From an uncultured Candidatus Saccharibacteria bacterium (lineage in GTDB: Bacteria > Patescibacteriota > Minisyncoccia > UBA6257 > GWB1-50-10), in the NCBI GenBank assembly GCA_964365955.1, contig CAYISA010000001.1, positions 18,607 to 82,606 of the forward strand: DNA of 64,000 nucleotides, given 5' to 3'. The translations under genes and the position numbers were made by a program. The notes beneath the pieces were generated by a model. That model searched no databases, was not told the origin of the DNA, and worked only from the letters and a program-made list of their open reading frames with translations. Every line of letters begins with the position of its first letter. The first letter of the stretch is position 1. This document shows positions 32,694 to 46,831 of this stretch, piece by piece.

Positions 32694-32782
32694 GATAAAC
32701 AAGCTTATGGTGGGCGGGTAAAAATGCCGCGTAATACCACTTTACTATGGGCCCCAAAATCAATTTTCAAAATGTCTGAATT

Positions 32783-32897
32783 GGTCGGGCTGCTGGGAAT
32801 CTTTCTCCCCCGTCACTATCGCTCCTCTTCCGAAACCCGCCACACCCGCTTTCTTCGTGCCCCGCACGCGCGGCCGTCGGCTTCGATTTCCATCTCC
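32783..32897 (-). repeat. tRNA-trailer element E3 (~115 nt) ending in a copy of the tRNA-Pro 3' end
   Basis: Minus-strand reading: ggagatggaaatcgaag (inverted T-arm copy)...gcgggtttcggaagaggag...cgggggagaaaga + attcccagcagcccgacc (17/18 identical to the tRNA-Pro 3' end). The core aligns with E1 (42296..42428) and E2 (43960..44072). Confidence 0.7.
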
Positions 32898-32955
32898 CAA
32901 ACAAAAGTATACCTTCTAATGGAATTTATTTGCAAACAACAAGCGCTTAAACCGG

Positions 32956-33026
32956 TCGGGCTGCCGGGAATCGAACCCGGTCTACACGCACCCGAAGCGT
33001 GCGTACTACCGGCATACTCCAGCCCG
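32956..33026 (-). tRNA. tRNA-Pro (anticodon CGG), CCA not encoded
   Basis: C1:G72 acceptor (CGGGCUG/CAGCCCG), A73, anticodon stem CACGC/GCGUG with loop UUCGGGU, T-arm CCGGG-UUCGAUU-CCCGG. Confidence 0.75.
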
Positions 33027-33072
33027 AAACGTTCTTCACTATACCCGAAGTCATTCTACTCGTAAAGAGAAT

Positions 33073-34563
33073 TTACTGCACGTGGTGCTTTGCCTTCATT
33101 TTTTCTTCAATACCGGTTTCAAATTCTTCTTTCGTCCCGCGCGCTTTTTTTGATAAGTCGTGAAGCCTGCTTTCGGTCATCTCCCCCAGTTCCTTCGATC
33201 GCGTACTCAAATATGCCTCCGCATTCCGTTCGGGATCTTCCAAAACCTCTTCGAGTAAAATCGAGAGGATCTGACCGATTTTCGGTCCCGCGGGAATTTT
33301 CAAAAGTTCCATCAATCCATCCCCCTTCAGTCTTAACATCTTCGGATGAATCGGATCGCGACGCACCTTATCGATCATGAACTGCAGGTGGCGCAGTTTA
33401 TATGGAAATGCCTTAGGAACACCCGAACCGATCCGGTCCGCTTCGCGCACCTTCAGCAAATCATCCACATTTTCCATTCCCACGCGGCTTAAAAATCGTC
33501 GCACGCCGGTTTCCGTAACTTCACCCACGTTGTAATAAAAAAGATGACAGCGTACCAAATGTGCAACGCGTTCAATAATGTCCTTCGAAAATCGTAGACG
33601 ATCTAGAATTTTCAGAGTCATTTTTGCCCCCACAACTTCATGATTATAAAATGTGGAATCATGGCCATCCCCTGCCTTTGTGCGCGGTTTTCCCACGTCA
33701 TGTAAAAGCGAAGCGAGACGCACTTCCAGCGAATACCCCTTTTCAACCGCGTAATTCAGCGCCCGCACATTGTGATCAAAAACGGTAAAGATGTGATGTT
33801 TGTTTTGCCCGCACCCAATTCCTTCGCGAAGTTCGGGAATGATGAATTTCAGAAGCCCTGTATCTTCTAGCATCACAATTCCGTCCGCCGCGCGATCCGT
33901 CATCAATAGTTTTGTTAATTCATCGCGGATACGTTCTTGCGAAATAAGTCCCAGCGCGCCGGAACGCTCCCGGATCGCTTTATAAGTTTCCGGCTCAACC
34001 ACAAACCCCAGATCTGACGAAAATCGCACTGCCCGCAAAAGACGCAGAGCGTCTTCCTCAAAGCGCCGGTGCGGTTCACCCACCGCGCGGATAATTTTAT
34101 TTCCGATATCCGCGACCCCTCCATACGGATCGATGAGTGCAGAGGCGTCTTTTTGAAACGAGAGCGCCAGCGCGTTCACGGTAAAATCGCGGCGCGCCAG
34201 ATCGTCTTCTACGGTTGCGGCAAATTTTACTTCGTCGGGGTGTCGCTTGTCCGAATAGGTTCCTTCAATCCGATACGTCGTGACTTCTACTACTTTCAGT
34301 CGCGGATCCTCGGATTCGGTTTTTACACCCACCGTTCCGAAGATATTTTCATAGACGCTCTCCGGAAAGAGTTTTTGAATCTCATCGGGCTTTGCGTTCG
34401 TCGTGATATCCCAGTCCTTCGGTTCCCGTTTCAGAATAAGATCACGAACACACCCGCCAACCAAAAACGCCTCAAACCCCGCCTGGATAAGCGTCTCGGC
34501 AACATGAACAACCCCTTTGGGAATGGATCCATACGTCATAGGTTGTTTTAATTGTAATTTCAT
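33073..34563 (-). CDS. cca: CCA-adding tRNA nucleotidyltransferase with HD domain
   Basis: PolyA-polymerase head motif GGCVRDLIL, HD motif LLHDVGKP, 496 aa. Probable start MTYGSIPKG at 34539. Confidence 0.85.
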   Translation of the reverse strand: MKLQLKQPMTYGSIPKGVVHVAETLIQAGFEAFLVGGCVRDLILKREPKDWDITTNAKPDEIQKLFPESVYENIFGTVGVKTESEDPRLKVVEVTTYRIEGTYSDKRHPDEVKFAATVEDDLARRDFTVNALALSFQKDASALIDPYGGVADIGNKIIRAVGEPHRRFEEDALRLLRAVRFSSDLGFVVEPETYKAIRERSGALGLISQERIRDELTKLLMTDRAADGIVMLEDTGLLKFIIPELREGIGCGQNKHHIFTVFDHNVRALNYAVEKGYSLEVRLASLLHDVGKPRTKAGDGHDSTFYNHEVVGAKMTLKILDRLRFSKDIIERVAHLVRCHLFYYNVGEVTETGVRRFLSRVGMENVDDLLKVREADRIGSGVPKAFPYKLRHLQFMIDKVRRDPIHPKMLRLKGDGLMELLKIPAGPKIGQILSILLEEVLEDPERNAEAYLSTRSKELGEMTESRLHDLSKKARGTKEEFETGIEEKMKAKHHVQ

Positions 34564-34633
34564 TTGACACGATTTTCAACGCGATGTAGACTTTTTCTAG
34601 TACTTTAATCAACTAGAAAAGGGGTATTTTACT

Positions 34634-35017
34634 ATGGCATTTCCCTCTAAAGAGACGGGCGCGTTGCTCACGAAAATCATCGAGTTCCAAGAAACGACCC
34701 TGCCCCAAAGCGAAAAACTTGCGGAAGACCTGGGGTCTTTGCTCCAAGAAATTTTGAAAAGCGCTGATGAATCTAACAAACAGATGGAAAATCTGGAAAA
34801 AGTAAACGGGGACTTAGAGAAAAAAGTCCAAGAATTACAAAATACATTGGTGGATCCGAAAGAGATCCAGAACGAAGCGATTCAGATCATTCTGCGGCGC
34901 ATTCTCGATAGCGAACCTGACGCAACACTGCGCCCGAAACTTGAGCGACTGATTGAAATCACACTGCACGAACGTATCTACCTCACTCCCGACCAGATCG
35001 CGCTCAAGATTTCTTAA
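34634..35017 (+). CDS. hypothetical coiled-coil protein (127 aa)
   Basis: Acidic, Lys/Glu-rich helical sequence followed by a terminator. No recognisable motif. Confidence 0.4.
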   Translation: MAFPSKETGALLTKIIEFQETTLPQSEKLAEDLGSLLQEILKSADESNKQMENLEKVNGDLEKKVQELQNTLVDPKEIQNEAIQIILRRILDSEPDATLRPKLERLIEITLHERIYLTPDQIALKIS

Positions 35018-35025
35018 GCTCATAT

Positions 35026-35056
35026 GCCGTCTTTATAAAAGGCGGCTTTTTATTTT
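35026..35056 (+). terminator. rho-independent terminator (gccgtctttataaaaggcggc + T-tract)
   Basis: Hairpin plus TTTTTATTTT after the 34634..35017 stop. Confidence 0.6.
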
Positions 35057-35083
35057 GAAATGTCTGCGGTACACTAAAATTAT

Positions 35084-35158
35084 GCCCCTGTGGTGAAAAG
35101 GATATCACGACTGGCTTCGAACCAGTTGTTGGGGGTTCGAATCCCTCCGGGGGCACCA
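35084..35158 (+). tRNA. tRNA-Arg (anticodon TCG), CCA encoded
   Basis: Acceptor GCCCCUG/CGGGGGC, D-arm GUGA...UCAC, anticodon stem ACUGG/CCAGU with loop CUUCGAA, T-arm GGGGG-UUCGAAU-CCCUC, A73-CCA. Confidence 0.75.
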
Positions 35159-35165
35159 CGACATT

Positions 35166-35489
35166 ATGCAGTGGATTTTACCTCTTTTAATTCTTATCAT
35201 CTTTGAAGCCATCGCGGATGTACTGGCGAAAGAATGGTCGCTACACGGTCTTTGGATCCGCGCAACGGGCGCCCTTCTTGCTTATCTTTTAGCAAACACT
35301 TTCTGGCTCTTTGCGCTCAAGAACGGATCCGGGCTCGGACGAGGCGTGATCATTTTTTCCGTAGTTTCTGCGATTCTTGCGGTCTTCATCGGTTTCGTAT
35401 TTTATAAGGAAAATCTTACCACGCTTCAGATTGTCGGCGTTCTCGTCGGCATCATCTCTATTGTGCTTATTTTTTGGGACTCATCGTAG
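35166..35489 (+). CDS. small 4-TM membrane protein (SMR/EamA-like)
   Basis: 107 aa, four hydrophobic helices. Resembles a small-multidrug-resistance / DMT-superfamily half-transporter. Confidence 0.5.
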   Translation: MQWILPLLILIIFEAIADVLAKEWSLHGLWIRATGALLAYLLANTFWLFALKNGSGLGRGVIIFSVVSAILAVFIGFVFYKENLTTLQIVGVLVGIISIVLIFWDSS

Positions 35490-35537
35490 GTTCTTCCCAA
35501 AAATTCGGAAGTGCGGTATATATGTATAGATCAACGT

Positions 35538-35610
35538 ACCGCCTGTAGCTCAATTGGCAGAGCAGCTCCCTCTTAAGGAGACGGTTGAAGGTTCAAGTCC
35601 TTCCAGGCGG
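35538..35610 (+). tRNA. tRNA-Lys (anticodon CTT), CCA not encoded
   Basis: Acceptor CCGCCUG/CAGGCGG, D-arm GCUC...GAGC, anticodon loop CUCUUAA (the 27:43 pair is G:A), T-arm GAAGG-UUCAAGU-CCUUC, A73. Confidence 0.7.
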
Positions 35611-35825
35611 ACAAAAAAATAGCGCCGTGACGGGCGCTATAAGCGTAGATTCGGAAAGAAATGAAGCTACCCACCAAACTAAGATTTTTTTGACTTCAAC
35701 AGTTTCTGTTCCATCTTTTGAAGCTCGGCAAGCTGACGTTTTTTCTTGGGCGTAAGAATCACTCCTTTGATGGGGCTGATAAGAATCCCGTCAAAAAATT
35801 CAGTCAGTTTTTGAAGCACTTCGCC

Positions 35826-36041
35826 CTAGAAATCGAGTCTTTTTTTCTGCGATTGAATTCTTTTTTCGATTTTTGATGCCTTTAATTTATTTCCCCGAAC
35901 TCCCACGATATGACATGACTTCCCGCACTTAGCACAAGAAAAGTTAAAAGTGCAGATCTCTTTGCTACCAGGAAAATCAGGTATGCCATGCGTTTTTACC
36001 TTAGCATGACAACATTTCGATCTGTAATTCTGCTCGAACAT
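35826..36041 (-). CDS. small Cys-rich zinc-ribbon-like ORF (tentative)
   Basis: 71 aa, KCCHAK...CTFNFSCAKCGKSCH. The ORF stops at TAG and continues in frame for another 46 codons (GEVLQKLTEFFDGILISPIKGVILTPKKKRQLAELQKMEQKLLKSKKS). Confidence 0.25.
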   Translation of the reverse strand: MFEQNYRSKCCHAKVKTHGIPDFPGSKEICTFNFSCAKCGKSCHIVGVRGNKLKASKIEKRIQSQKKRLDF

Positions 36042-36146
36042 TTCATCTTCTCCATTTTTTTGAAAAGGCTAACTCCAGTATCACTCTTTTGCGGGTCATG
36101 TCAAACGGTCGAAAAATACCGAAAAATCTGGTATACTGGTGCGCGC

Positions 36147-38336
36147 ATGAAGGGAAATCACGAACTCTTGACGCCTCTTTCGGAAATCCATGGAATCGGC
36201 GCGCGGTTTCTTGAGAAACTCGCACGCTTGCATATCTATACCGTGAAAGATCTTCTGTGGCACTTCCCCACCCGCTACGAAGATTTCAGAACAATTTATA
36301 AAATTGCGGATCTTATTCCAAATCAGGAGGCAACCATTCAAGGAGTTGTGGAAAAGATAAAAAGCCGGCATACCTGGCGCCGGAATCTATTCCTAATGGA
36401 AGCGGACATTTCGGATGATACTGGCACCATCCGCGCCCTATGGTTTAACCAACCCTATATCCAAAATGTTCTTCAGCCGGGAAAACAGGCTAATTTTTCC
36501 GGGAAAGTGGTTCTTTCGCGAAAAGAGAGTGATCTGTATCTTTCAAACCCAACCTATGAAGTGTTGCGCTCCGGACATTCCTCTTTCGACGAAACAGGAG
36601 CACCCATTGAGACACCCACGGAAACACGTCACACCGCGCGCATTGTGCCAATCTACCCCGAAACACGCGGGTTCACTTCCAAAGGACTACGGTACCTTAT
36701 CAAACCGATTTTAGATAATCTTCCTGAGATTCCCGAAACCATTCCGGAAGAAGTACTTAAAGGAGAAAACTTTCCAACTGTCTCGAACGCTCTCCAAAAT
36801 GTCCATTTCCCCGAAACTCTCGAGGATGCGATTGCCGCAAAACGCCGCTTTGCGTTTGAAGATCTTTTTCTTTTGCAGCTGTGGAGTGTCCGCGAGCGGC
36901 TAAAATTCGCTAAAGAACGTGCGCCGCAAATTCATGTCGATATTGCCGTTATTAAAAACTATATCGCCGCGCTTCCGTTTGCACTGACCAAGTCCCAAAA
37001 AAAAACGTTGTGGGAAATTATGCAGGATTTAGGGCGCCCCCACCCCATGAACCGGCTTCTCCAGGGCGATGTGGGATCCGGAAAAACCATCGTAGCGGCG
37101 ATCGCGGCGCTTGAAACTGCCCACACGGAGTACCAGACGGCGTTTATGGCGCCTACCGAACTCTTGGCTCGCCAGCACTATAAAACGTTTCAGAAATTTT
37201 TCCGCGATTTTGACGGCGGCATCGCACTCCTGACCTCCAGCGAAGCTAAGATGCAGTACGGTCATCAACTGGAGAGCGAGATGCGGAAAGCGGCGCTACT
37301 TGACCATATCGAACAGAATAAAATTAAAATTGTGATTGGAACTCACGCGTTGATTCAAAAAACAGTCACATTTCCGAAACTTGGGTTGGTAGTGGTAGAC
37401 GAACAGCACCGCTTCGGAGTCCGCCAACGGGATGTGCTTTTAAAGCATAACCTCGGGAACAAAAAAGAACATCCTCCCATCCCGCATTTTCTTAGTATGA
37501 GCGCGACGCCGATCCCCCGAACACTCAACCTTACGCTTTTCGGCGATCTGGATCTTTCGCTGATTACGGAACTTCCAAAAGACCGGAAGCCGATTCTTAC
37601 CAAAGTGGTTCCTCCCAAAGACCGAACCAAAGCATATGCGTTTATCCGCAGTGAGATCAAAAAGAGCCGGCAGGTATTCGTCATCTGTCCCAGAATTGAA
37701 GTAGCCGCAGAGAATCCGTCCGCTTTCGGGAACGTAAATCCATTGCAAGAAATAAGAGCCGTGAAAGAAGAGTATAAGAAATTATCAGAAAAGATATTCC
37801 CCGATCTCCGCGTCGCCATGCTCCACGGTAGAATGAGACCGAAAGAAAAAGAGAAAACAATGCGGGAATTTTCCGAAGGGAAAAAAGATATCTTGGTTGC
37901 GACGTCAGTCATTGAAGTCGGCATCGATATTCCAAATGCCACCATCATGATAATCGAGGGCTCCGAACGATTCGGCCTAGCACAACTGTATCAGTTCCGC
38001 GGGCGCGTGGGACGGGGAGAACATCAGTCCTACTGCCTGCTTTTTACCGATGCATCGGGCACCCAAATAAAAGCGCGCCTCAAGGCGATCGTGGAGGCAA
38101 AAAACGGATTCGAGCTTGCGGAATATGACCTGAAAATGCGCGGACCCGGCGAGTTTTTGGGAGAGTCGCAAACCGGGATGCCGGACTTGGCAATGAAAGC
38201 CATACAGAATCCCGATCTGGTACAACATGCCCGCGAAGCCGCTACCAAACTTCTTGCAAAAGACCCGAACTTGAAAATATATCCGCTGCTTGCCGAACGC
38301 CTTGCAGAGTTTCAAAAAAATATGCACGGGGAATGA
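36147..38336 (+). CDS. recG: ATP-dependent DNA helicase RecG
   Basis: Wedge/OB N-terminus, helicase motif I GDVGSGKT, motif II VVDEQHRFG, C-terminal helicase domain. Start chosen at MKGNHELLTPLSEIHGIG (36147). The track ORF start at 35988 has a hydrophobic, unlikely extension. Confidence 0.9.
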   Translation: MKGNHELLTPLSEIHGIGARFLEKLARLHIYTVKDLLWHFPTRYEDFRTIYKIADLIPNQEATIQGVVEKIKSRHTWRRNLFLMEADISDDTGTIRALWFNQPYIQNVLQPGKQANFSGKVVLSRKESDLYLSNPTYEVLRSGHSSFDETGAPIETPTETRHTARIVPIYPETRGFTSKGLRYLIKPILDNLPEIPETIPEEVLKGENFPTVSNALQNVHFPETLEDAIAAKRRFAFEDLFLLQLWSVRERLKFAKERAPQIHVDIAVIKNYIAALPFALTKSQKKTLWEIMQDLGRPHPMNRLLQGDVGSGKTIVAAIAALETAHTEYQTAFMAPTELLARQHYKTFQKFFRDFDGGIALLTSSEAKMQYGHQLESEMRKAALLDHIEQNKIKIVIGTHALIQKTVTFPKLGLVVVDEQHRFGVRQRDVLLKHNLGNKKEHPPIPHFLSMSATPIPRTLNLTLFGDLDLSLITELPKDRKPILTKVVPPKDRTKAYAFIRSEIKKSRQVFVICPRIEVAAENPSAFGNVNPLQEIRAVKEEYKKLSEKIFPDLRVAMLHGRMRPKEKEKTMREFSEGKKDILVATSVIEVGIDIPNATIMIIEGSERFGLAQLYQFRGRVGRGEHQSYCLLFTDASGTQIKARLKAIVEAKNGFELAEYDLKMRGPGEFLGESQTGMPDLAMKAIQNPDLVQHAREAATKLLAKDPNLKIYPLLAERLAEFQKNMHGE

Positions 38337-38408
38337 AGCGGTTTGCGTGCGAAAAACATATTGATATATAATCCGATTAGCACATTCCAAGAACTATAAG
38401 GAGTTTTT

Positions 38409-39089
38409 GTGAAATATCTTGTTTGGATGTCGATATTTTTTGTATTTTCCCCTTCGGTTGCTTCTGCACAGTCACCTACAATCATCGCAAAAAGCTTCTA
38501 CGCAATCGAGATTAATTATTCCGATCCCGTCTCATGGTTCGGGGGATCGGTTCTGGGATTTGCACCTAAACAAGCGCTCTATCATGAAACATGGAAACCG
38601 GGTAAAGCGCCGGGTTATGCCTTTCGAGTGGAGTTGATTGCGGACGGAAAAGAACGATGGTTCCTGGTAGATCAGGATTCCTCCGTTCAATCTTTTGTCC
38701 ACCTGCCACGCGCCGACCTGAAAAATCTTGGAAAAGACGCGATATTGCTGGTGGGGCAAATCCTTCACTTTCTGAACTGTACAGACGCCTGCTCTACAAC
38801 ACTTCAGGGGATCCTCCATATCGATACATCGGAAATTGTTTCAAAATTCCGCGATCGTAAACCATTCGAAATTCCCGATTCCGAAAAAATTCAACTCCGC
38901 GGGACGCACTCACGATTTGTGACTGTAACCACGCGAAACGTAAACACTAGAGATCCCTATATCGCGGGAGATATCTTGATTGAGCGCGTGAATGGTTACA
39001 CTATCTACCCATATGTTTCGGTTTATCTTTTTGACCAAAAAATATGGATAACACTCTACCTAAGAAAATTTTTGGTAGAATATCAGTAA
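38409..39089 (+). CDS. hypothetical secreted protein (226 aa)
   Basis: GTG start, signal peptide KYLVWMSIFFVFSPSVASAQS, followed by a strong terminator. Confidence 0.45.
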   Translation: MKYLVWMSIFFVFSPSVASAQSPTIIAKSFYAIEINYSDPVSWFGGSVLGFAPKQALYHETWKPGKAPGYAFRVELIADGKERWFLVDQDSSVQSFVHLPRADLKNLGKDAILLVGQILHFLNCTDACSTTLQGILHIDTSEIVSKFRDRKPFEIPDSEKIQLRGTHSRFVTVTTRNVNTRDPYIAGDILIERVNGYTIYPYVSVYLFDQKIWITLYLRKFLVEYQ

Positions 39090-39121
39090 AACCCCCCGAA
39101 TAATCCGAGGGGTTTTTATTT
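39089..39121 (+). terminator. rho-independent terminator (aaaaccccccgaataatccgaggggttttt)
   Basis: GC hairpin plus T-tract. Also lies just downstream of the convergent pheT. Confidence 0.7.
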
Positions 39122-39131
39122 CTTTTTCGAT

Positions 39132-41138
39132 TTATCGGAACTCTACCTTGAACTCCGTTTTTAATAGTTTCTTTATTTTTTCTATTTGTTTATCCACTTC
39201 TTCTGCAGTCAACGTCCGATTGTCTTGTTGGAACACGATTCGGAACGTAAGACTTTCTTTATCCGTCCATTTGGGATCGCTGTACTCATCCACAAGATCC
39301 ACGTCGCGGATCATGCGCATATTGGCAAGCTGGATCGCCTGCATCACGTCTCCTACCGAATACATAGTGTTTAGAAGGATAGAAATATCGCGCATCACCG
39401 CCGGATAACGGGAAGGCGGCAGATACTCCATTTCCTCGGCTACCGCTTCTTTCAATACATCGAGTTGGATTTCCACGATCGCCGTATGCCAGCCTTTCGC
39501 CGTTGTCAAAGCAGTCCCCATAACACCGATTTCTTTTGCACCCAAACGAAGTGTGACAACAGAAGATTTGTCCATCCAGTATTTTCCGACATGGGCCGGC
39601 TTTCCTTTCTTGTCGAAAAGAACGGAGTCGGTAATGCCCGTACTTTTCAAAAAACTTTGAAGAACGCCTTTTAAGTTGAAAAATGATTCCTTGCCTTTGG
39701 TTGCAAACACCATGCCCAGCATCCATTGCTCCACAATACCTTTTGTATTTCGCAAAAAGGTCTTCCCAACCTCGAAAATAGTCACCGTATCCCCAAACTT
39801 TGCATTCGATTCGGCACTTGCAAGCAGATTTGGCGCGAGTGCAGGGCGAAGATAATAAAATTCTTTACTGATCGGATTTTCCAAAGACACTAAAATCGCT
39901 TTTTCCACCATTATCTCGGCCTCTTTCGCAATAAAGGAATTGCCGTATATCTCGTTCAAACCCAATTCCGAAAGAATTTTTCGCGTTTTTTCTTTAAGAA
40001 CAATAGTTTCATCTTGTGCTGCCGCGCCCAAATGAATACGGGGCGGAACGGATTTTAAATTCCCCAATCCGTAAAGCCGCACCACTTCTTCTGCTATGTC
40101 TTCGTGGGTTTCAATGTCAGTTCGATAAAGTGGAACTTTCCACACATCCTTCCCTTTGTTTATAAATCCAAGACGCCGTAGATATCCTGCCGCCACCTCA
40201 TTAGAAAGAGAGGTCCCGATAAATGCGTTGAATTTAAGAATATCGAACCTAAGCTCGTGCTTGGGGGCCGGTTTCTTTTGCGAATCATATACTTCAAGAA
40301 TCTTTGCGCCTGTGATTTCTTGGATCACGTAAGCGGCACGCGAAAGTCCTAATTCTGCAAGGTTTTCGCTTAACCGATGTGAAAACCTCTGTGACGCATC
40401 AGTTACCAACTTCAACATTTTTGACGTTCTATAAATACTCACGGGATCAAATGTGGCGGACTCAATAACAATGCGCTTTGTGGCTGCAGTCACCTCCGGG
40501 CCATGTCCCCCTTTGATTCCAGCAATTGCGATCGAATGCTTGGCATCCGCAATCACCACCGTCTCGGGCGCAAGATCATATTTCACCCCATCAATCGTAA
40601 TTATGGATTCTCCCTTCTTCTTCGCGCGCCGCACAATAATTTTTGCGCCCTCTAATTTATCCGCATCAAACGCATGAAGCGGCTGGCCCATCTCGAGCAT
40701 TACATAATTCATTGCATCAACGATGTTATTAATGGGACGAAGCCCGCACTCTTTGAGTGTTTCCTGCATCCACCGCGGAGATGATTTTACAGTGACCTCA
40801 TCCATCACACACGCGGTGTATCGAGTACAAAGTTGTGGCTCATCTATATTTATGTTCAATTGTGGTTTACAATTTCTAGAGGGTTTTGCAAAATCCACAA
40901 CCGGCAATTTCTTCATTCCGCCCCAGTCGACAATCCAGTCAAAAATCACCGCGACTTCTTTGGCAATGCCCCAATGTGATGAGGCATCGGCATATCGATT
41001 CGGGGGAAGATTCACCTCGAATGTGTTCCCGGAAGCATCTTCCGCTTCAAACGCGTGTAAGGACAGCGCCTCGACGACCTGCGCTTTGGATTTCAGCTTG
41101 GGAACGAATTGTTTCACAAGGGAGTACGAAAATTTCAT
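39132..41138 (-). CDS. pheT: phenylalanine--tRNA ligase beta subunit
   Basis: MKFSYSLVKQFV N-terminus typical of PheT, B3/4 and B5 domains, 668 aa, immediately downstream of pheS. Confidence 0.85.
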   Translation of the reverse strand: MKFSYSLVKQFVPKLKSKAQVVEALSLHAFEAEDASGNTFEVNLPPNRYADASSHWGIAKEVAVIFDWIVDWGGMKKLPVVDFAKPSRNCKPQLNINIDEPQLCTRYTACVMDEVTVKSSPRWMQETLKECGLRPINNIVDAMNYVMLEMGQPLHAFDADKLEGAKIIVRRAKKKGESIITIDGVKYDLAPETVVIADAKHSIAIAGIKGGHGPEVTAATKRIVIESATFDPVSIYRTSKMLKLVTDASQRFSHRLSENLAELGLSRAAYVIQEITGAKILEVYDSQKKPAPKHELRFDILKFNAFIGTSLSNEVAAGYLRRLGFINKGKDVWKVPLYRTDIETHEDIAEEVVRLYGLGNLKSVPPRIHLGAAAQDETIVLKEKTRKILSELGLNEIYGNSFIAKEAEIMVEKAILVSLENPISKEFYYLRPALAPNLLASAESNAKFGDTVTIFEVGKTFLRNTKGIVEQWMLGMVFATKGKESFFNLKGVLQSFLKSTGITDSVLFDKKGKPAHVGKYWMDKSSVVTLRLGAKEIGVMGTALTTAKGWHTAIVEIQLDVLKEAVAEEMEYLPPSRYPAVMRDISILLNTMYSVGDVMQAIQLANMRMIRDVDLVDEYSDPKWTDKESLTFRIVFQQDNRTLTAEEVDKQIEKIKKLLKTEFKVEFR

Positions 41139-41141
41139 AAA

Positions 41142-42140
41142 TCAGAATTGTTCGATAAACCTTATGTCACCCGAATAAAACAGCCGAATGTCGGGGATGT
41201 TATATTTGATCATCGCGAGTCGATCGAGCCCCATACCGAACGCGAACCCTTGCACTCCACCGGCTGACGAATCGGGGTTATAACGCACCGCATCAAAAAC
41301 ATTTCGATGTACCATCCCCGCGCCCATGACTTCCAGCCATTTTCCACCTTTCAACCGAATATCAACTTCCAATCCCGGCTCGACGAAGGGAAAATAACTT
41401 GGTCGGAAACGAAAATCGATTTGAGTACGGAAAAACTTTTTGAAAAATTCCTCGATAATGAATTTAAAATTGGCGAGCGTCACATCCGGTCCCACCATCA
41501 GCCCTTCGACCTGATAAAAATTGAACGCGTGGGAAGCATCGGTTGCTTCATAACGGAATACCCGTCCCGGAACAATAATCTGAAACGGGGGGTTGTGCGC
41601 CTGCATATAACGAATCTGCATGGGCGACGTGTGCGTGCGTAACAACAAACTTTCCTCGCCGCGTTTTTCCTTTTTTATCCAGAACGTATCCCACAGGTCC
41701 CGCGCGGGATGATCGCCCGGAATATTCAGCGCATCAAAATTATAGAATTCCGATTCGATTTCCGGTCCTTCCACAACGGAAAAGTTCATCGAGGAAAAAA
41801 TGCGACGCACTTCGGCGTCCACCAGCGTAAGAGGATGGAGATGCCCCCGGGAAATTCGCTTCCCCGGTTTTGTGACGTCGATTCTTTTTTTACTTTTTAT
41901 CTCCGAAAGATGCGTAAGCGCAACAGCGATTTTCTTTTCCAGTTCTTGACGCAGGGCATTTGCGCGCGGACCCAATTTCCGCCGCCCTTCCACCGGAAGG
42001 CCCTTGAGAGATTTGAGTATTTCCGTAAGTTCTCCTTTGCGGCCGATGTATTTTATGCGCGCAAGTTCGAGCGCCACCGCGTCCCGTGCTTTTTCTATAT
42101 CGCCCCAGGCACGTTTTTTAATATCCTCAAGCGGTTCCAT
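41142..42140 (-). CDS. pheS: phenylalanine--tRNA ligase alpha subunit
   Basis: Class II aaRS motifs (FRPSYFPFVEPGLEVDI, GAGMVHRNV), 332 aa. Confidence 0.9.
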   Translation of the reverse strand: MEPLEDIKKRAWGDIEKARDAVALELARIKYIGRKGELTEILKSLKGLPVEGRRKLGPRANALRQELEKKIAVALTHLSEIKSKKRIDVTKPGKRISRGHLHPLTLVDAEVRRIFSSMNFSVVEGPEIESEFYNFDALNIPGDHPARDLWDTFWIKKEKRGEESLLLRTHTSPMQIRYMQAHNPPFQIIVPGRVFRYEATDASHAFNFYQVEGLMVGPDVTLANFKFIIEEFFKKFFRTQIDFRFRPSYFPFVEPGLEVDIRLKGGKWLEVMGAGMVHRNVFDAVRYNPDSSAGGVQGFAFGMGLDRLAMIKYNIPDIRLFYSGDIRFIEQF

Positions 42141-42223
42141 GGTTTATATATCTATTATATCCGAATTTTCTCCGAGAGAAAAACGGATTTGAATTTCAAG
42201 GTATTCTTAGTATATGATGGTTC

Positions 42224-42295
42224 TGCGGGGAAGAGTAACGGTTGCTCGTCAGGCTCATAACCTGAAGGTAGTGGGTTCAATTCCCACCCCCGCAA
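42224..42295 (+). tRNA. tRNA with CAT anticodon (Met / Ile2 / initiator not resolved), CCA not encoded
   Basis: Acceptor UGCGGGG/CCCCGCA (U1:A72), anticodon stem UCAGG/CCUGA with loop CUCAUAA, T-arm GUGGG-UUCAAUU-CCCAC, A73. Confidence 0.65.
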
Positions 42296-42428
42296 CACAG
42301 GTGGGAATTGAAGTCGACCCGAGCGCTTGCGGGGCAAGAAAAAGTGAGGGCGACGGGTTTCGAAGGAGTCCCGCCGAAGCGGACGGGGGAGAAAAATTCC
42401 CACCCCCGCGACACAGGTGGGAATTGAA
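42296..42428 (+). repeat. tRNA-trailer element E1 (~117-nt unit) ending in a 32-nt copy of the tRNA-Met 3' end
   Basis: cacaggtgggaattgaag (inverted copy of the T-arm, starts 1 nt after the tRNA) + core ...gggtttcgaaggagtcccgccgaagcggacgggggagaaaaa + ttcccacccccgcgacacaggtgggaattgaa (31/32 identical to 42281-42312). Confidence 0.75.
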
Positions 42429-42433
42429 ATATT

Positions 42434-42506
42434 GCCGGCGTAGCTCAGTGGTTAGAGCGAGCGCTTCATAAGCGTTAGGTCGGAGGTTCGATCCCTCCCG
42501 TCGGCA
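42434..42506 (+). tRNA. tRNA with CAT anticodon (second copy; Met or Ile2), CCA not encoded
   Basis: Acceptor GCCGGCG/CGUCGGC, D-arm GCUC-AGUGGUUA-GAGC, anticodon stem AGCGC/GCGUU with loop UUCAUAA, T-arm GGAGG-UUCGAUC-CCUCC, A73. Terminator follows. Confidence 0.75.
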
Positions 42507-42510
42507 CTAA

Positions 42511-42540
42511 AAGCCCCGCCAATTGGCGGGGTTTGGGTTT
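42511..42540 (+). terminator. rho-independent terminator (aagccccgccaattggcggggttt)
   Basis: Hairpin plus T/G-rich tract after the tRNA. Confidence 0.6.
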
Positions 42541-42838
42541 CACATATAGATAACATCACCGCAGGAAATAACGCGTCCTTTTTTTGATCCCGATACAACA
42601 CGCCAAATCGGACACCGTGACGGGCAGTTATCGCGTCCAATCATTTCTACTTCATACTTACCTTCATTTCGGACAAAAATCTTTATGGCCTCTCCTATGA
42701 CAAATTTGGAAGTGTCCACCCTACATTGCCTCTGTCCCATGAATCTCTCCTTTCTTAATAATGAATTGATGCTGTAGCTAAGTATCCTCTATTCGTGTTT
42801 TTCGGTCAAGAACCTGTCGCGTTTACCGCGCTTTTGAT

Positions 42839-43297
42839 ATGCTTATTCCCATGACTACGGAACAAAAGAAAAAAATCGTATCCGTTGCTCGCGCGCTTGT
42901 CGGTAAGTCATACGTGTACGGCGCCGCGCCGGAAAATGTTCCAAACGCATTCGATTGCTCATCGTTTACGCAATATGTTTTCGGGCAGATAGGAATCCAA
43001 CTTCCACGCAGTGCTATCCTGCAAGCCGCCGACCCTAACGGAAAAGAAGTCGAAATTTTTCCGGACTTCCAGAATCTTGAAATCGGCGATCTACTTTTCA
43101 TGCGTAGCGACCGCGGACATTACCACGACCAGTTATTCAACGGAAAAACAATGGATATCGGACATGTCGTTCTTTATCTGGGGGGCGGAGCAATCATCCA
43201 TTCACAAAGCAAAAAAGGTGGGGTCGTCGAAGAACCCTTGAAAGAGTTCGCGCTGCAGCCGCACTATTCGGTTGTTTATATCAAGCGTTTTGAATGA
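42839..43297 (+). CDS. NlpC/P60 family (C40) peptidoglycan peptidase
   Basis: YVYGAAPENVPNAFDCSSFTQYVFGQIGIQLPRSAILQ...GDLLFM...GHVVLYLGGGAIIHS gives the Cys-His catalytic arrangement of NlpC/P60. Confidence 0.75.
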   Translation: MLIPMTTEQKKKIVSVARALVGKSYVYGAAPENVPNAFDCSSFTQYVFGQIGIQLPRSAILQAADPNGKEVEIFPDFQNLEIGDLLFMRSDRGHYHDQLFNGKTMDIGHVVLYLGGGAIIHSQSKKGGVVEEPLKEFALQPHYSVVYIKRFE

Positions 43298-43815
43298 CCT
43301 ACTCGATTCCCGCTTACTCCCAACACCTGGATATTAAAGACAAAAAGTGGCGCCGCCGCTCCTGCGGAGTTGTCGCTTTCAAAATGGTACTGGATTTCTG
43401 GGAAAAACAAACATCCCCAACATTCCCAGAACTCTTGAAAAACGGACAGAAGATGAAAGCATACATTCGGGGCGTCGGGTGGAGCCATGCTGGTATTGCC
43501 AAACTTGCAAAAAAATACGGTTTTGCAGGAAAAAATTTTGATTGGTTCCTGAAAAAATCCGAATGGGCGTTCAAAAAAACCCGAATTTTTCTAAAAACCG
43601 GCCCCGTGATTGTATCGATCCATAAAGATCTGAATCCAAAGAAATCGGGGCATCTGGTGGTGGTTACTCGTATCACCGCGAGCCGCGTTTACTACCTGGA
43701 TCCCGACGCTTACGCGCGCGACAACATACGGCGCGTGGCTTCAAAAAAACGTTTTCTCGCGGGATGGAAGCGGCGCATGATCATTGTCCGCCCCCGCGGG
43801 TTGCATAGAAAATAA
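43294..43815 (+). CDS. C39-like (papain-fold) peptidase domain protein
   Basis: RRRSCGVVAFKMVLDFW (Cys motif) and later GHLVVV (His motif) resemble the Peptidase_C39-like family. Start overlaps the upstream stop (ATGA). Confidence 0.55.
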   Translation: MTYSIPAYSQHLDIKDKKWRRRSCGVVAFKMVLDFWEKQTSPTFPELLKNGQKMKAYIRGVGWSHAGIAKLAKKYGFAGKNFDWFLKKSEWAFKKTRIFLKTGPVIVSIHKDLNPKKSGHLVVVTRITASRVYYLDPDAYARDNIRRVASKKRFLAGWKRRMIIVRPRGLHRK

Positions 43816-43841
43816 GGAATTGTTAAAGTGTAGTTGCTGTT

Positions 43842-43917
43842 GCGGGCGTGGTGTAGCCTGGTTTAACACGCCTCCCTGTCACGGAGGAGACCGTGGGTTC
43901 AAATCCCATCGCCCGCG
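43842..43917 (+). tRNA. tRNA-Asp (anticodon GTC), CCA not encoded
   Basis: Acceptor GCGGGCG/CGCCCGC, G73, D-arm GUGU...ACAC, anticodon stem CCUCC/GGAGG with loop CUGUCAC, T-arm GUGGG-UUCAAAU-CCCAU. Confidence 0.75.
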
Positions 43918-43930
43918 CACGTGAAAAGAA

Positions 43931-43958
43931 GTTACCCCTTGTGGGTAATTTCTTTTTA
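43931..43958 (+). terminator. rho-independent terminator (ttacccCTTGTgggtaa + tttctttttat)
   Basis: Hairpin plus T-tract between tRNA-Asp and element E2. Confidence 0.6.
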
Positions 43959-43959
43959 T

Positions 43960-44072
43960 CCACAATGGGATTTGAAGGGAACTCGCGCGCTCGCGAGCGA
44001 GATAAAACGCGAGTCCCTGGTTTCGGAGGAGGCGCAAATGCGGCGGGGGAGAAAAAATCCCATCGCCTGCGC
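43960..44072 (+). repeat. tRNA-trailer element E2 (~113 nt) ending in an 18-nt copy of the tRNA-Asp 3' end
   Basis: ccacaatgggatttgaaggg (inverted copy of T-arm ttcaaatcccat) + core ...ctggtttcggaggaggcgcaaatgcggcgggggagaaaaa + aatcccatcgcctgcgc (17/18 identical to 43901-43918). Confidence 0.75.
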
Positions 44073-44079
44073 TGACAAA

Positions 44080-45129
44080 TTAGAAAATTACTTCTTTAAG
44101 TTTGTGCGTATCCCCGTGCTGCAATAACCCACGATAGGAGTTGATCGTCTCACGGCGCGGATATCCTTTCAGATTTCGCACTATCCTCCGTTTCGTGATG
44201 GTGCGAATCTGCCGATGATGCGGGAAATGAATCCATCCGAGAAAATCGACCCCGGAGGCATAAGACTCAATGGAAACTTTCTTCTCGTGTAACGAGAGGC
44301 GAAGGTGATCATGGAGGAATGCCCGAATCTTGAGTAATAACACCACGAGATAATCCTTGTTATCCGATAGGATCAGAAAATCATCGGCATAGCGAATATA
44401 ATATTTCCCCTTCAATTCCTGTTTTATAAACATATCAAATTCATGCATATAAATGTTTGCGAGGAGCTGGGATGTGAGATTCCCCAAGGGAAGTCCAAGG
44501 CCAGACCGCACCATATGAAAGCTTGAAATGACTTGTCCTAAGAGCCAAAGAATATCTCGATCTCCTATATTTCGTTCAATGATACGGGTCAAAATTTTTT
44601 GATCCACGCTTGCAAAGAATCTCTTAATATCACACTTTAGGACGTAGCAGGTGCGCGTATTATTCTTTGATACTTTGCGGGCAAATGAGTCGAAGCGTTC
44701 CAGAGCCTTATGAATCCCCTTGTCTTCTCGGCAGGCACAGGAATCGTAGATGAATCGCTCTTCAAAATAAGGATAGAGAGCCCGATAAAGTACGTGATGG
44801 AGAAAGCGGTCCCGCACAGAAGCCTTATGAATAGTCCGTCGTTTCGGGTCCGAGACGTGGAATTCGGAATAGGGTCCATGAACATATGTTTTGTAAAGAA
44901 GGTCTCGGTGAAGCGACACAAGATTGTCTGAGAGGCATGCCTCGAATCCCGCCACATCCTTTTTGTGTCGTTTACCGCAGAGAAACCGTTCCCACGTTGC
45001 AAGGAGATTTTCTATGGTTATGATATCTTGGTAAGTATGAATAATCGTAGTAATAGTGCTGTACCCCCCCGCACAAGGGAAACTCCGCTTGTACTTTTGA
45101 AGGTAAAAGAAACATACCGAACGTGGCAT
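44080..45129 (-). CDS. diversity-generating retroelement reverse transcriptase
   Basis: RT motifs incl. YADDFLIL (RT5) and GLPLGNLTSQLLANIYM (RT4 with the DGR-type [ILV]GxxxSQ signature). N-terminus IITIENLLATWERF...GKRHKKD is like DGR RTs. ~349 aa; start chosen at MPRSV (45129), which has a GAGGTG Shine-Dalgarno sequence; the track ORF runs to 45144. Confidence 0.85.
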   Translation of the reverse strand: MPRSVCFFYLQKYKRSFPCAGGYSTITTIIHTYQDIITIENLLATWERFLCGKRHKKDVAGFEACLSDNLVSLHRDLLYKTYVHGPYSEFHVSDPKRRTIHKASVRDRFLHHVLYRALYPYFEERFIYDSCACREDKGIHKALERFDSFARKVSKNNTRTCYVLKCDIKRFFASVDQKILTRIIERNIGDRDILWLLGQVISSFHMVRSGLGLPLGNLTSQLLANIYMHEFDMFIKQELKGKYYIRYADDFLILSDNKDYLVVLLLKIRAFLHDHLRLSLHEKKVSIESYASGVDFLGWIHFPHHRQIRTITKRRIVRNLKGYPRRETINSYRGLLQHGDTHKLKEVIF

Positions 45130-45435
45130 ACCCACCTCGCGCATATTTCTCGCATTGATCGGAATACGATAGGAATTCGTATTGACGAGACGTTCCTTTC
45201 TCTCTTGGAGCTTACGTTCCGAGCGTGTTTTGCGGCGGATAAATTTGAGAAGCTATCCATGGTGTCAAATGCTATTGCGAAATCTGACATCCTCAAATTC
45301 TTCCTGCAACTTGCATGGGAGGGAAAGACACTGGATCACGCGCTCTACGGAAAACTGCTTCTCGATTTAGATGAAATCGGCCGGATGCTCGGAGGGTGGA
45401 AACGAACCTTGTCTAGCAAAACTCCCGCGAAATAG
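45037..45435 (+). CDS. Avd-like accessory variability determinant (four-helix-bundle, basic C-terminus), encoded antisense to the RT 5' end
   Basis: C-terminus LLLDLDEIGRMLGGWKRTLSSKTPAK plus predicted helices (ETYRTWHTHLAHI / IRIDETFLSLLELTFRA / LSMVSNAIAKSDILKFFLQLAWE), as far as I recall Avd proteins. Start uncertain: the track ORF begins at 44965; 45037 is the first ATG compatible with a four-helix length. Overlaps the RT start on the opposite strand by ~90 nt. Confidence 0.5.
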   Translation: MNNRSNSAVPPRTRETPLVLLKVKETYRTWHTHLAHISRIDRNTIGIRIDETFLSLLELTFRACFAADKFEKLSMVSNAIAKSDILKFFLQLAWEGKTLDHALYGKLLLDLDEIGRMLGGWKRTLSSKTPAK

Positions 45436-45452
45436 CGGGAGAAATCATATGC

Positions 45453-45574
45453 GTAGCAGAAACAGAGCACGCAGTTGTCAGAATTCCAGTCATTCTCGAA
45501 GTTGCCGAGGTTGAACTTGTAGTCACCGTCCGAGTTGCGGTTCACGTTCGGCACCCTGTGGTTACCGTCGGCGT
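45453..45574 (-). repeat. DGR template repeat (TR), sense strand = minus
   Basis: ~122-bp non-coding copy of the 3' ends of the two target genes. In the coding orientation it is AAC-rich (encodes NHRVPNVNRNSDGDYKFNLGNFENDWNSDNCVLCFCY). Every internal mismatch to VR1/VR2 is at a TR adenine. Followed on the minus strand by the hairpin ctcccgctatttcgcgggag. Confidence 0.85.
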
Positions 45575-45814
45575 GTCGTCATGGTATATACGACGCATCA
45601 TCCAGTCCACCGGAGAGAACGCCTGTCCTCCCCTGCATTTCATTCGGAGTCTTTGAATACTCCCGAATGCATCGTACCGACGGATATGATTTTTTCATGA
45701 GGGATGGCGCGCGCGCATAAGGCGTACCCGATGCGTTCCTGGCCTATTTTCGCTCACGGGAATTCGATGACATGAAGCCGTAACCGCATGTTCGAATCCA
45801 ATTCCGTCGTTAGT

Positions 45815-45847
45815 ATATATAAAAACCCCCTCGTTTGCACGAGAGGG
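45815..45847 (-). terminator. rho-independent terminator downstream of DGR target gene 1
   Basis: Minus-strand ccctctcgtgcaaacgagggg hairpin followed by tttttatatata. Confidence 0.55.
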
Positions 45848-45904
45848 TCGAATCTAAGGAACTAATCGGACAAGAACTTATCCAATCGTCCGAGTGTCTG
45901 AGTA

Positions 45905-46573
45905 CTACTCACCGTCGCAGAAACAGAGCACGCAGTAGTCAGAACCCCAGTCACGCTCGAAGTCGCCGAGGCTGAACTCGCAGTCACCGACCGAGTAGCG
46001 GAACACGCGCGGCACCCTGTGGTCACCGCCGGCGTCAACCCAGAGAGCGTTCTTCTCGTCGAAGGAGACGTAGAATTTTCCTTTCGGAAGTTCATCTTTC
46101 TTCTCCTGATAGACGAGGGAGGCACCCTGAGCACCGACGAGAATCGCGTTCTGAGACCGCAAAAGGTTCATGTGATCTTCGGAGGTCACGCTACCCTTCT
46201 TGATTCCGAAGACTTTGACCTTGTAGGTCTTCCCGGGAACCAGTTGGGTGGTCGCCTTGGCGAAGTGTGAGTCCGTGATGTCGGTGTTGTAATAGTAGAA
46301 GCCCTTGCGGTACTTCTGTTCGAAGGTCGCAAGCTGGGTTCCATGGACATAGTCCTTGGGAACCGTAAGCGCGAACTCTTTGAGGTGCTCGTAGCGCGGA
46401 TCGATGAGGTTGGCCCCGTCAAACTTTCCCTCAATCGCATTTTGAAGATGCAGTTTGAGGAGATGCGGATTGAAGGGGTACCCACTCGGTTGGCGGAGTT
46501 GACGGGCGATTTTAAAAATCTGCCCGGTAATCGACTCGTATAAGTCGCCTGCGACAATCGGTTTCGTTGCCAT
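45905..46573 (-). CDS. DGR target protein 1 (VR at C-terminus)
   Basis: 222 aa from MATKPIV (AAAGGAA Shine-Dalgarno sequence). Paralogue of target 2. C-terminal 38 aa (GDHRVPRVFRYSVGDCEFSLGDFERDWGSDYCVLCFCDGE) is encoded by VR1. Confidence 0.75.
   Translation of the reverse strand: MATKPIVAGDLYESITGQIFKIARQLRQPSGYPFNPHLLKLHLQNAIEGKFDGANLIDPRYEHLKEFALTVPKDYVHGTQLATFEQKYRKGFYYYNTDITDSHFAKATTQLVPGKTYKVKVFGIKKGSVTSEDHMNLLRSQNAILVGAQGASLVYQEKKDELPKGKFYVSFDEKNALWVDAGGDHRVPRVFRYSVGDCEFSLGDFERDWGSDYCVLCFCDGE
45912..46035 (-). repeat. DGR variable repeat VR1
   Basis: Aligns with the TR over ~122 bp. ~23 differences, all at TR T (plus strand) = A (coding strand) except the boundary position. Confidence 0.85.
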
Positions 46574-46738
46574 GACGATATTCCTTTCTGTTAATGAACG
46601 CTTGGAGACTGCCAAGTCAGGTGTAAGGGTATCTTACGGTCTAAAGAGTAGTATAGTAATTATATATTGTCAAGCATAAAGATTCGAATCAACGGGCCTA
46701 TCCCCTACCAAAACCCCTACAAATGGAGGGTAAATCGA

Positions 46739-46772
46739 TGTATAAAAAATGCCTCTCGTTTGCACGAGAGGC
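46739..46772 (-). terminator. rho-independent terminator downstream of DGR target gene 2
   Basis: Minus-strand gcctctcgtgcaaacgagaggc perfect hairpin followed by attttttata. Confidence 0.6.
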
Positions 46773-46831
46773 ATGAATCTAAGGGTCGAAAAACCCTAAG
46801 GGCATACATAATGGACGTAAGCGCCAAAGAA

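Follow-up and report, generated by a model that had tools for sequence, protein, structure and literature searches.

A family of structured elements beside tRNA genes whose ends complement and copy the 3' end of the neighbouring tRNA

The stretch of DNA considered here, 64,000 nucleotides (nt) from an uncultured Candidatus Saccharibacteria bacterium (contig CAYISA010000001.1, positions 18,607 to 82,606, hereafter the window), contains three members of a family of short non-coding elements, E1, E2 and E3. Each lies downstream of a tRNA gene, on the same strand, and each is bounded by two segments that derive from that very tRNA. Read on the tRNA-sense strand, the unit consists of a 5' segment complementary to the tRNA (C), a conserved core (D) and a copy of the tRNA 3' end (A'). 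Segment C contains 7-9 nt complementary to tRNA nt 57-63/65, followed by GAA, and the repeated tRNA segment begins at nt 57, in the T loop, in every case. About 30 further copies were found in metagenome-assembled genomes (MAGs) and metagenomes, and comparative alignment of the family points to a conserved single-strand fold in which the two tRNA-derived ends pair with each other. The family may tentatively be read as a non-autonomous mobile element that acts as a folded single strand, probably RNA, and takes its 3' tail from the neighbouring tRNA.

Seven tRNA genes are present in the window according to ARAGORN and Rfam; three of them (Met, Asp and Pro) carry an element and the other four do not. 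The fold has four helices, namely P1 (C with A' nt 57-63), P2, Px and P3. The core D, ~85-110 nt long, holds the long helix P2, the 4-bp helix Px (UUUC:GAAA), a purine-rich internal loop (GGAGGAG / CGGGGGA) and the variable hairpin P3, with the invariant motifs GG-UUUC-GGAGGAG and CGGGGGA-GAAA. For each element as a whole, the coordinates below start with C and end at A' position 73.

42224..42296 (plus): tRNA-Met(CAT), the cognate of E1, called by ARAGORN and the Rfam tRNA model; its nt 57-73 are at 42279-42295
42300-42412 (plus): E1, whose direct repeat runs on to 42429
42300..42312 (plus): E1 segment C, ggtgggaattgaa, complement of tRNA-Met nt 54-66, of which GGGAATT is the 5' strand of P1
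42313..42395 (plus): E1 core D, from alignments, RNAalifold and covariation, with P2 at 42313-42354, a GGG linker, the Px 5' strand UUUC at 42358-42361, GAAGGAG, the P3 hairpin at 42369-42384, CGGGGGA and the Px 3' strand GAAA at 42392-42395
42396..42429 (plus): E1 A', with the copy of tRNA-Met nt 57-73 at 42396-42412 (G instead of A at position 72)
42417-42429 (plus): E1 C', ggtgggaattgaa again, the spacer and C being repeated after A'; a trailing C' is likewise found in the relative L044
43842..43918 (plus): tRNA-Asp(GTC), the cognate of E2, called by ARAGORN and Rfam
about 43924-43955: a bidirectional terminator-like hairpin 3' of tRNA-Asp
43965-44071 (plus): E2
43965..44054 (plus): E2 C and D, with C (atgggatttgaa) at 43965-43976, P2 at 43977-44018, UUUC at 44021-44024, then P3, and GAAA at 44051-44054
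44055..44073 (plus): E2 A', with the copy of tRNA-Asp nt 57-73 at 44055-44071 (1 mismatch, C69 to T), then CT
32954..33026 (minus): tRNA-Pro(CGG), the cognate of E3, called by ARAGORN and Rfam, with a promoter-like site at 33066-33038
32935-32906 (minus): a sigma70-like site, TTGCAA-18-TATACT, just 5' of E3 segment C
32893-32785 (minus): E3, followed by CCA at 32784-32782
32802..32893 (minus): E3 C and D, with C (atggaaatcgaa) at 32893-32882 and the Px 3' strand GAAA at 32805-32802
32782..32801 (minus): E3 A', with the copy of tRNA-Pro nt 57-73 at 32801-32785 (A instead of G at position 64), and CCA at 32784-32782

The original prediction had recognized these three elements at their tRNA genes by eye, and they are borne out by a full-length alignment, a unique pair of motifs and a covariance model. 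E1-E3 can be aligned end to end. The motif GGTTTCGRARGAG has 3 exact matches in the window and CGGGGGAGAAARA has 3 matches against 0.29 expected, and the two co-occur solely at E1-E3. A covariance model built from relatives reports exactly 3 sites in the 64 kb, at E = 1e-16 to 1e-20 (E1, 42302-42404, 92.7 bits; E2, 43966-44064, 94.7 bits; E3, 32792-32892, 76.1 bits). Because the core is conserved, the family does not represent independent decay of tandem tRNA duplicates, as had also been argued at the outset.

The extent of the two tRNA-derived segments differs somewhat from what was first described. Over 18 nt, the 3'-end copies have 1 mismatch for Pro, as predicted, and 2 for Asp, where only 1 had been counted; the Met copy, given as a 32-nt match, is an 18-nt copy with 1 mismatch inside a longer repeat of about 33-36 nt. 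None of 100 shuffles gave two matches in any of the three cases. Inverted T-arm copies are indeed present at the 5' ends (ggtgggaattgaa in E1, atgggatttgaa in E2 and (at)ggaaatcgaa in E3), limited to the complement of nt 54-63/65; past nt 65 the agreement is at background.

The fold was examined in 28 aligned copies. Paired cells make up 89.9% of the helices against 70.6% after shuffling, compensatory changes on both sides occur in 22 of the 28 pairs, and pairing falls to 37-56% when the partners are slid by 1-3 columns. P1 is paired in 95% of cells and shows covariation at nt 57 and 59, which vary among T loops; this supports the earlier proposal that the 5' inverted copy pairs with the 3' tRNA copy and closes the element. 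P1 is solid over 7 bp (nt 57-63), whereas position 64 is paired in 61% and position 65 in 52% of copies. The GAA of segment C is invariant because its complement, UUC at nt 54-56, is universal, and it therefore cannot covary. P2 has a variable tip and conserved tandem G-A/A-G pairs, and P3 is a hairpin of free sequence. Px is invariant in canonical copies and covaries among subfamilies (UUUC:GAAA, UUGU:ACAA, UUCU:AGAA, CUGU:AUAG); it is established by these diverged subfamilies, which keep the pairing with changed sequences. An alternative GAAG:UUUC pairing was dropped, since only UUUC:GAAA covaries in subfamilies a and b.

Two features of this fold bear directly on its interpretation. G-U pairs outnumber A-C pairs in P2 and P3 by 8 to 2, and this excess, together with purine-purine pairs that would be pyrimidine clashes on the opposite strand, indicates that it is the tRNA-sense strand that folds. 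Moreover, the 3' strand of Px (GAAA) is contiguous with the 3' strand of P1 (nt 57-63), so that the boundary between core and tRNA tail falls exactly at the branch point of the three-way junction of P1, P2 and Px. In the model of the fold, P1 stacks on Px.

Beyond the window, a pattern scan restricted to a single genome for each species gave 14 loci, of which 11 are genuine, and in JGI/ENA metagenomes about 14 of the 27 loci from another scan are genuine (loci outside the window are given here as L numbers). The hosts are labelled as Patescibacteria/Parcubacteria, Omnitrophota, Firestonebacteria, Endomicrobiales, Planctomycetales, Actinomycetota, Pseudomonadota MAGs and others; relatives of its PheS and CCA enzyme place the window itself in Patescibacteria. 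A wider search for the core, as originally suggested, thus yielded ~30 more copies and the association with tRNA ends was kept: 22 of about 30 copies stand immediately 3' of their cognate tRNA (Asp, Met, Pro, Leu, Ser or Thr) and share its orientation, and well-preserved copies all bear the 3' end of their own upstream tRNA. A' even tracks the lineage-specific acceptor stem of tRNA-Asp, which is cgccc in L042 and ccacc in L044. The core, in turn, is ~94% identical between L003 (labelled Parcubacteria) and L014 (Omnitrophota), whereas E1-E3 of a single genome differ much more.

No real copy was found in IMG/VR viral contigs by pattern scans and the covariance model, or in GenBank phages and PLSDB plasmids by blastn. 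With Rfam 15, only the 7 tRNAs reach the gathering threshold in the window, and E2 and the canonical copy L003 give just noise at E <= 10. A likeness to RNase P RNA (GAAGCUGACC...GUUUC and GAGGAAAGUCC) was judged coincidental, as cmscan gives no match and the AAGUCC part is a T-loop sequence that some tRNAs have. Full-text literature searches turned up no account of an element like this, though one could exist under a different vocabulary.

Other tRNA-associated sequences were noticed along the way. L016 holds a second, more diverged family of the same layout after tRNA-His and tRNA-Gly (11845-11900 and 14875-14969; GGGATTTGAA AGACACYGGTCGCCACC...GACCAGTGTC GTGGCTCGGAG...), of which the tRNA-His copy is a 5' fragment only; it was missed by the covariance model, and the superfamily is therefore broader than the counts above. 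A conserved sequence with a T-loop-like start (TTCGACTC), TTCGACTC..(T)CGCTCAGTGCAGGCA, recurs 3' of tRNA genes or elements in unrelated loci, for example in L021 (3400-3490, duplicated) and 3' of tRNA-Met in L042/L043 (L043 5780-5850). In the window itself, ggggcccatagtaaagtggtattacgcggcatttttacccgcccaccataagc at 32703-32755 (minus), between E3 and tRNA-Ala, resembles a tRNA 5' half (acceptor 5' strand and D arm); neither ARAGORN nor Rfam calls it, and it may be a tRNA fragment or pseudogene.

The sequence that follows nt 73 in A' offers some indication of where the tail might come from. Positions 74-76 read CCA in E3, L010 and L014, against CCG/CAA, CAT or TTT in the gene, and the tRNA-Pro gene of E3 itself encodes no CCA. 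CTA follows A' in 5 further independent copies, while 3 of 22 upstream gene copies have CCA or CTA. The length of the repeated segment varies from 17 to about 75 nt. In loci with short spacers (6-18 nt), the repeat runs through the spacer and sometimes into the start of the element (E1, L004, L008, L016, L032), as would be expected if precursor transcripts were the source. A' can also part from its gene. E3 A' retains the T-stem cccag seen in tRNA-Pro of the relative L065, the window tRNA now having cccgg, and C bears a compensating T; A' can thus be a fossil while P1 is maintained. At the E1 locus, the tRNA-Met of the window starts with U1 (U1-A72), its L043/L044 orthologues (5850-5924) have C1 opposite A72, a mismatch typical of initiator tRNA, and E1 A' has G72.

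Comparison of one empty/occupied pair of orthologous sites places the unit beyond the tRNA gene and its terminator. At the E3 locus, the empty L065 and the occupied L066 have the same terminator hairpin directly after tRNA-Pro, and the L066 element starts 14 nt past the T-run of this terminator. The shared terminator means that the spacer is native, so that the unit sits beyond a native terminator and not in the T loop, and A' repeats the tRNA end without adjoining it. Distances from tRNA to element fall into three groups (6-18, 33-39 and 47-64 nt), with many copies in the last. The empty-site comparison that had been proposed accordingly gave empty and occupied orthologues at three loci: besides L065/L066, the tRNA-Met site is empty in L043 and occupied in the window and L044, and L034 and L035 contrast at a tRNA-Pro site with both flanks orthologous. 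In a more distant relative, L067, no tRNA-Pro follows the cca gene. Simple target-site duplication was rejected, as the spacer is unduplicated in most loci.

Turnover is evident in the family, and locally constraint as well. Complete tandem arrays are present in L012, L021, L022/L034, L042 and L044, and L022 and L034 are 97% identical yet unequal in copy number. Two subfamilies, a chimera and truncated units are found together in the arrays that follow tRNA-Asp in L042 and L044. Subfamily b, for its part, is ~96% conserved between L042 and L044, whose PheS is only ~80% identical to that of the window. Between L006 and L013, the element is identical at 104 of 105 positions, compared with 43 of 48 (90%) in the spacer and about 85% in neighbour genes; this identity ends at A' position 65, the acceptor part of A' being gone in L013 with the core intact.

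Several peculiarities of these regions are recorded here in their own right. Short-read contigs of relatives (L063-L066, L015, L019, L022) stop inside or just past the tRNA/element region, as would be expected if the element were a repeat that breaks assemblies. N runs lie within the L012 array (7530-7610) and within a tandem tRNA-Met duplication in L042 (5772-5847), so unit counts there are lower bounds. In L064 (2390-2480), whose CCA enzyme is 92% identical, a tRNA-Pro 5' part (cgggctggagta) is followed by a ~70-nt insert and a second tRNA start (cggggcggagtatgccggtag...), within which the contig ends; the tRNA may be interrupted here by an insertion or intron, or may be duplicated. Spacers often hold hairpins made of sequence like the 3' half of the T loop/T stem and its complement, for example ttcaagtccc-ttaac-gggacttgaa (L014 6305-6340, L003 2040-2066, L016 11848-11866, L013 4600-4640), and L013 has an inverted copy of the entire tRNA-Leu 3' end after its truncated A'. 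Such sequences may be footprints of earlier units.

The genes around the elements are of the housekeeping type. Among 99 open reading frames (ORFs) around 19 loci searched with Pfam, no integrase, transposase, TnpB/Cas or reverse transcriptase (RT) recurs. The window genes are core genes (type IV pilus, DnaB, LigA, GatA, PheST, RecG, CCA enzyme) plus one diversity-generating retroelement (DGR), and Pfam finds there no Phage_integrase or Recombinase family and no OrfB_IS605, Cas12 or Tn7 families. E1 is followed by NlpC/P60 and C39 peptidase genes that are syntenic in relatives, and the earlier suggestion that E1 opens an accessory island is wrong. The DGR, complete and located at 44080-47100 (minus), does abut E2 as had been noted; its parts are as follows.

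44080-45144 (minus): reverse transcriptase
45452-45574 (minus): template repeat
45913-46035 and 46840-46962 (minus): variable repeats

The repeats differ almost only at template T on the plus strand (T-to-N, which is A-to-N on the RT strand). Syntenic relatives L042-L044, which bear elements, have no DGR between tRNA-Asp and gatA, so it is a lineage-specific insertion between E2 and gatA. A tblastn search with the DGR RT against the other loci (2-15 kb) gave nothing, and no RT was found near any other copy. The adjacency is coincidental: the DGR was inserted next to E2 later and is unrelated to it, and the idea that the elements are accessories of a DGR was discarded on the same two grounds.

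How could such a unit arise? In the mechanism that we favour, tentatively and with rather less than even confidence, segment C would serve as an internal guide that docks the 3' strand of the tRNA T loop/T stem beside the 3' end of the core. The tail would be drawn from the neighbouring tRNA, either mature, which would give CCA, or precursor, which would give trailer sequence. The resulting chimera would be fixed in DNA beside that tRNA gene by enzymes encoded in trans, for which an RT with template switching, or ligation, plus recombination are candidates. In favour of mobility are the empty and occupied orthologous sites, the tandem arrays with unequal copy number, the degenerate and chimeric copies, the similarity of cores labelled as different phyla and the breaks of short-read contigs at the element. 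The fold, the match to the local tRNA, the position of the junction, the turnover among relatives, the site past the native terminator and the lack of linked genes are observed, whereas the RNA intermediate, the chemistry of joining, the enzymes and any benefit to the host are inferred. Essentially, this corresponds to the miniature mobile element among the explanations first offered, and its main rival to the structured tRNA-trailer RNA family.

A number of observations weigh against this mobile, tail-capturing element. The proposed mechanism is without a route that places the unit specifically 3' of the cognate gene, and no RT lies near any copy save the unrelated one of the DGR beside E2. 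An intrinsic terminator stands between tRNA and element in about half of the loci, and sigma70-like promoters 5' of C are not enriched (4 of 28 copies against 2.6 expected), E3 being an exception; given both, transcription of the sense strand is conjectural and a folded single-stranded DNA form is possible. The CCA/CTA signal comes from about 10 copies, and in the same genomes tRNA genes without an element can also be followed naturally by CTA or CCA. The spread across phyla relies on MAG taxonomic labels accepted as written. Finally, the conservation between L006 and L013 resembles purifying selection, for which an RNA useful to the host would account no less well than a selfish element, or better.

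It is possible, though doubtful, that the elements are indeed small RNA genes selected by the host, in which C-D-A' mimics the 3' part of the neighbouring tRNA (T-stem/acceptor 3' strands, discriminator, sometimes CCA). Such an RNA might serve as decoy, sponge or partner of a toxin, a processing factor or an enzyme that binds tRNA. Its copies would not be products of transposition; they would result from local duplications and from gene conversion involving the tRNA gene. The strongly conserved folded core with invariant junction nucleotides suits this explanation, as do the 99% identity of the L006/L013 element next to a less conserved spacer and flanking genes, the conservation of subfamily b, and the compensatory change by which E3 keeps P1 paired after A' had drifted from the gene. 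Expression is also conceivable, since a promoter-like site of its own precedes E3, co-transcription with the tRNA is possible for E1 and further copies with short spacers, and terminators follow many copies. Against it, the family is patchy, with presence and absence among close relatives, many degenerate, truncated or chimeric copies and varying copy number in arrays; only 3 of 7 window tRNAs bear an element; cores are near-identical across phyla while copies in the same genome differ; and L013 has lost the acceptor part of A' while its core is intact. In addition, terminators lie upstream and there is no general promoter, and half of the cases have CTA where a mimic of a tRNA end should have CCA.

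Two explanations invoke known DNA-targeting machineries. A stand-alone guide RNA of the omegaRNA or CRISPR RNA (crRNA) type, with a scaffold and a 17-nt 3' guide steering a trans-encoded TnpB/Cas12-like effector or RNA-guided transposition machinery, appears improbable. It would read the universal T-arm GGTTC 5' of nt 57 as a target- or protospacer-adjacent motif (TAM/PAM) and the insertions as homing like that of the delocalised crRNA of type V-K CRISPR-associated transposons (CAST); Saito et al. reportedly described in 2021 a V-K homing crRNA whose short spacer matches a tRNA gene. The layout is compatible with this, for the scaffold ends in 17-20 nt that repeat the sense-strand sequence of the tRNA gene next to it, orientation to the tRNA is constant and many insertions lie 47-64 nt past the tRNA end; GGTTC before the target and GAGAAA before the element's own copy would avert self-targeting, a feature explained equally by other models. 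It is at odds, however, with the lack of a TnpB, Cas12, TnsB or TniQ-like gene near 19 loci or in the 64-kb window, with the lack of a match to Rfam omegaRNA-type families, and with distances to the tRNA that, in their three groups, spread far wider than in known RNA-guided transposons. The supposed seed is moreover paired with C in the conserved fold, and the tail tracks the local tRNA perfectly, sometimes with trailer or CCA that is absent from the DNA target. Very improbable is the remaining idea of miniature integrative elements or their scars, in which a tyrosine integrase would act in the T loop, nt 57-73 would be the att core and the ~100 nt a remnant of an attP arm. The repeat does span the T loop to the tRNA end, like the classical T-loop integration sites that Williams is said to have described in 2002, and tandem accretion beside tRNA genes would also fit. 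Since L065 and L066 share the terminator after tRNA-Pro, the element lies past it on a native spacer and the tRNA 3' end was not replaced; no integrase is encoded among the 99 neighbouring ORFs or in the window; and the interior is a covarying single-strand fold with G-U and tandem G-A pairs and freely variable hairpin sequences; and the 5' inverted copy would have no role in integration. The att-arm scars and attL/attR cores of the original prediction are thereby set aside. Integration at 56|57 with a replacement 3' end had been entertained because CCA or CTA often stands after A' and not after the gene copy, and was ruled out by the same pair of loci.

A further idea, which we regard as unlikely, is that the core is itself a small catalytic or ligation-templating RNA: with the 3' strand of the tRNA T loop/T stem docked by its 5' guide, it would cut or join at nt 56|57 and capture or exchange tRNA 3' ends. 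The element would then be a programmable tRNA-directed mobile ribozyme of a new class that spreads across candidate phyla, and could serve tRNA 3'-end repair or sabotage. Known self-cleaving RNAs provide partial parallels. The type I hammerhead likewise has a three-way junction with an open stem I, and here the target-derived strand continues from Px into P1 at what would be the hammerhead cleavage point. A mapping onto the hammerhead was nevertheless rejected: the topology fits, but the core CUGANGA, GAA, A15.1-U16.1 and NUH are lacking, the junction strands being GAA / NGG / none instead of CUGANGA / GAA / H. In cmscan with Rfam 15, the hammerhead, twister, twister-sister, pistol, hatchet, hairpin and hepatitis delta virus (HDV)-like families gave nothing beyond noise at E <= 10, and no HDV-type pseudoknot is present. 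HDV-like theta ribozymes are found directly after phage tRNA genes (PMC10879173).

Among mobile elements, the nearest precedent to a tail-capturing unit is provided by the Mauriceville/Varkud retroplasmids of Neurospora mitochondria, which are also small mobile nucleic acids with a tRNA-like 3' end that form element-tRNA chimeras. Retroplasmid RTs switch templates onto tRNA 3' CCA ends and make chimeras (10.1101/2021.05.13.443781). Those plasmids carry their own RT and measure several kilobases, while the present unit is ~120 nt, non-coding and unlinked to an RT, and of the tRNA it contains just nt 57-73(76), attached at a three-way junction that is set by pairing with an internal guide. The Neurospora chimeras, as Akins et al. 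are said to have shown in 1986, carry post-transcriptional CCA and integrate at a tRNA gene. Group I introns resemble the elements in another respect: C is arranged like an internal guide sequence, its 5' part being complementary to the sequence 3' of the junction (57-63) and its GAA to the UUC before it, and they too are structured, ORF-less, associated with tRNA genes and patchy. Group I introns, like the elements, are frequent in Patescibacteria (PMC13011429). The element differs in that it leaves the tRNA uninterrupted, has ~100 nt and no group I core, and ends in A and not G at its 3' end; Rfam Intron_gpI gives no match at the gathering threshold in the window or at E <= 10 for E2 and L003.

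The other comparisons also stop short of identity. TnpB omegaRNA and V-K crRNA are similar in the scaffold with a ~17-nt 3' segment, identical here to the neighbouring tRNA gene, and in that GGTTC stands before the target and not before the element's own copy; here no effector is nearby, the seed is held in P1, the tail may include trailer or CCA and the distance is variable. Repetitive extragenic palindrome doublets with their tyrosine transposases (REPIN/RAYT) and the palindrome-associated transposable elements (PATEs) derived from IS200/IS605 are similar as ~100-nt non-coding single-strand folds in intergenic, post-terminator positions, moved in trans by an enzyme that is present in single copy. 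They differ in having constant ends and a fixed 4-5-nt target, in being species-specific, in not being tied to tRNA genes and in lacking ends copied from tRNA. A miniature inverted-repeat transposable element (MITE) derived from a DDE transposon was rejected, as the inverted ends vary with the tRNA and the repeated nt 57-73, of variable length, does not adjoin the 5' end of the unit in most loci. Every known family tested fails on a defining feature, and the family is rated as apparently undescribed and outside the known kinds.

If the tail-capturing element proposed here is real, several poorly known phyla would carry a ~100-nt element whose two ends are written by the neighbouring tRNA through a 7-9-nt internal guide, which fixes the junction with single-nucleotide precision. 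Non-coding elements would then have a further, new means of selecting a target and keeping a record of it, placed somewhere between introns, guide RNAs and retroelements, and the T loop of tRNA might be a site of new RNA chemistry. The family would also account for assembly breaks and odd 'partial tRNA' matches beside tRNA genes in MAGs of the candidate phyla radiation (CPR) and Omnitrophota, and the covariance model gives a handle for annotating it. Even if the elements were small RNAs that mimic tRNA ends, they would constitute a widespread class of structured RNA that is absent from Rfam.

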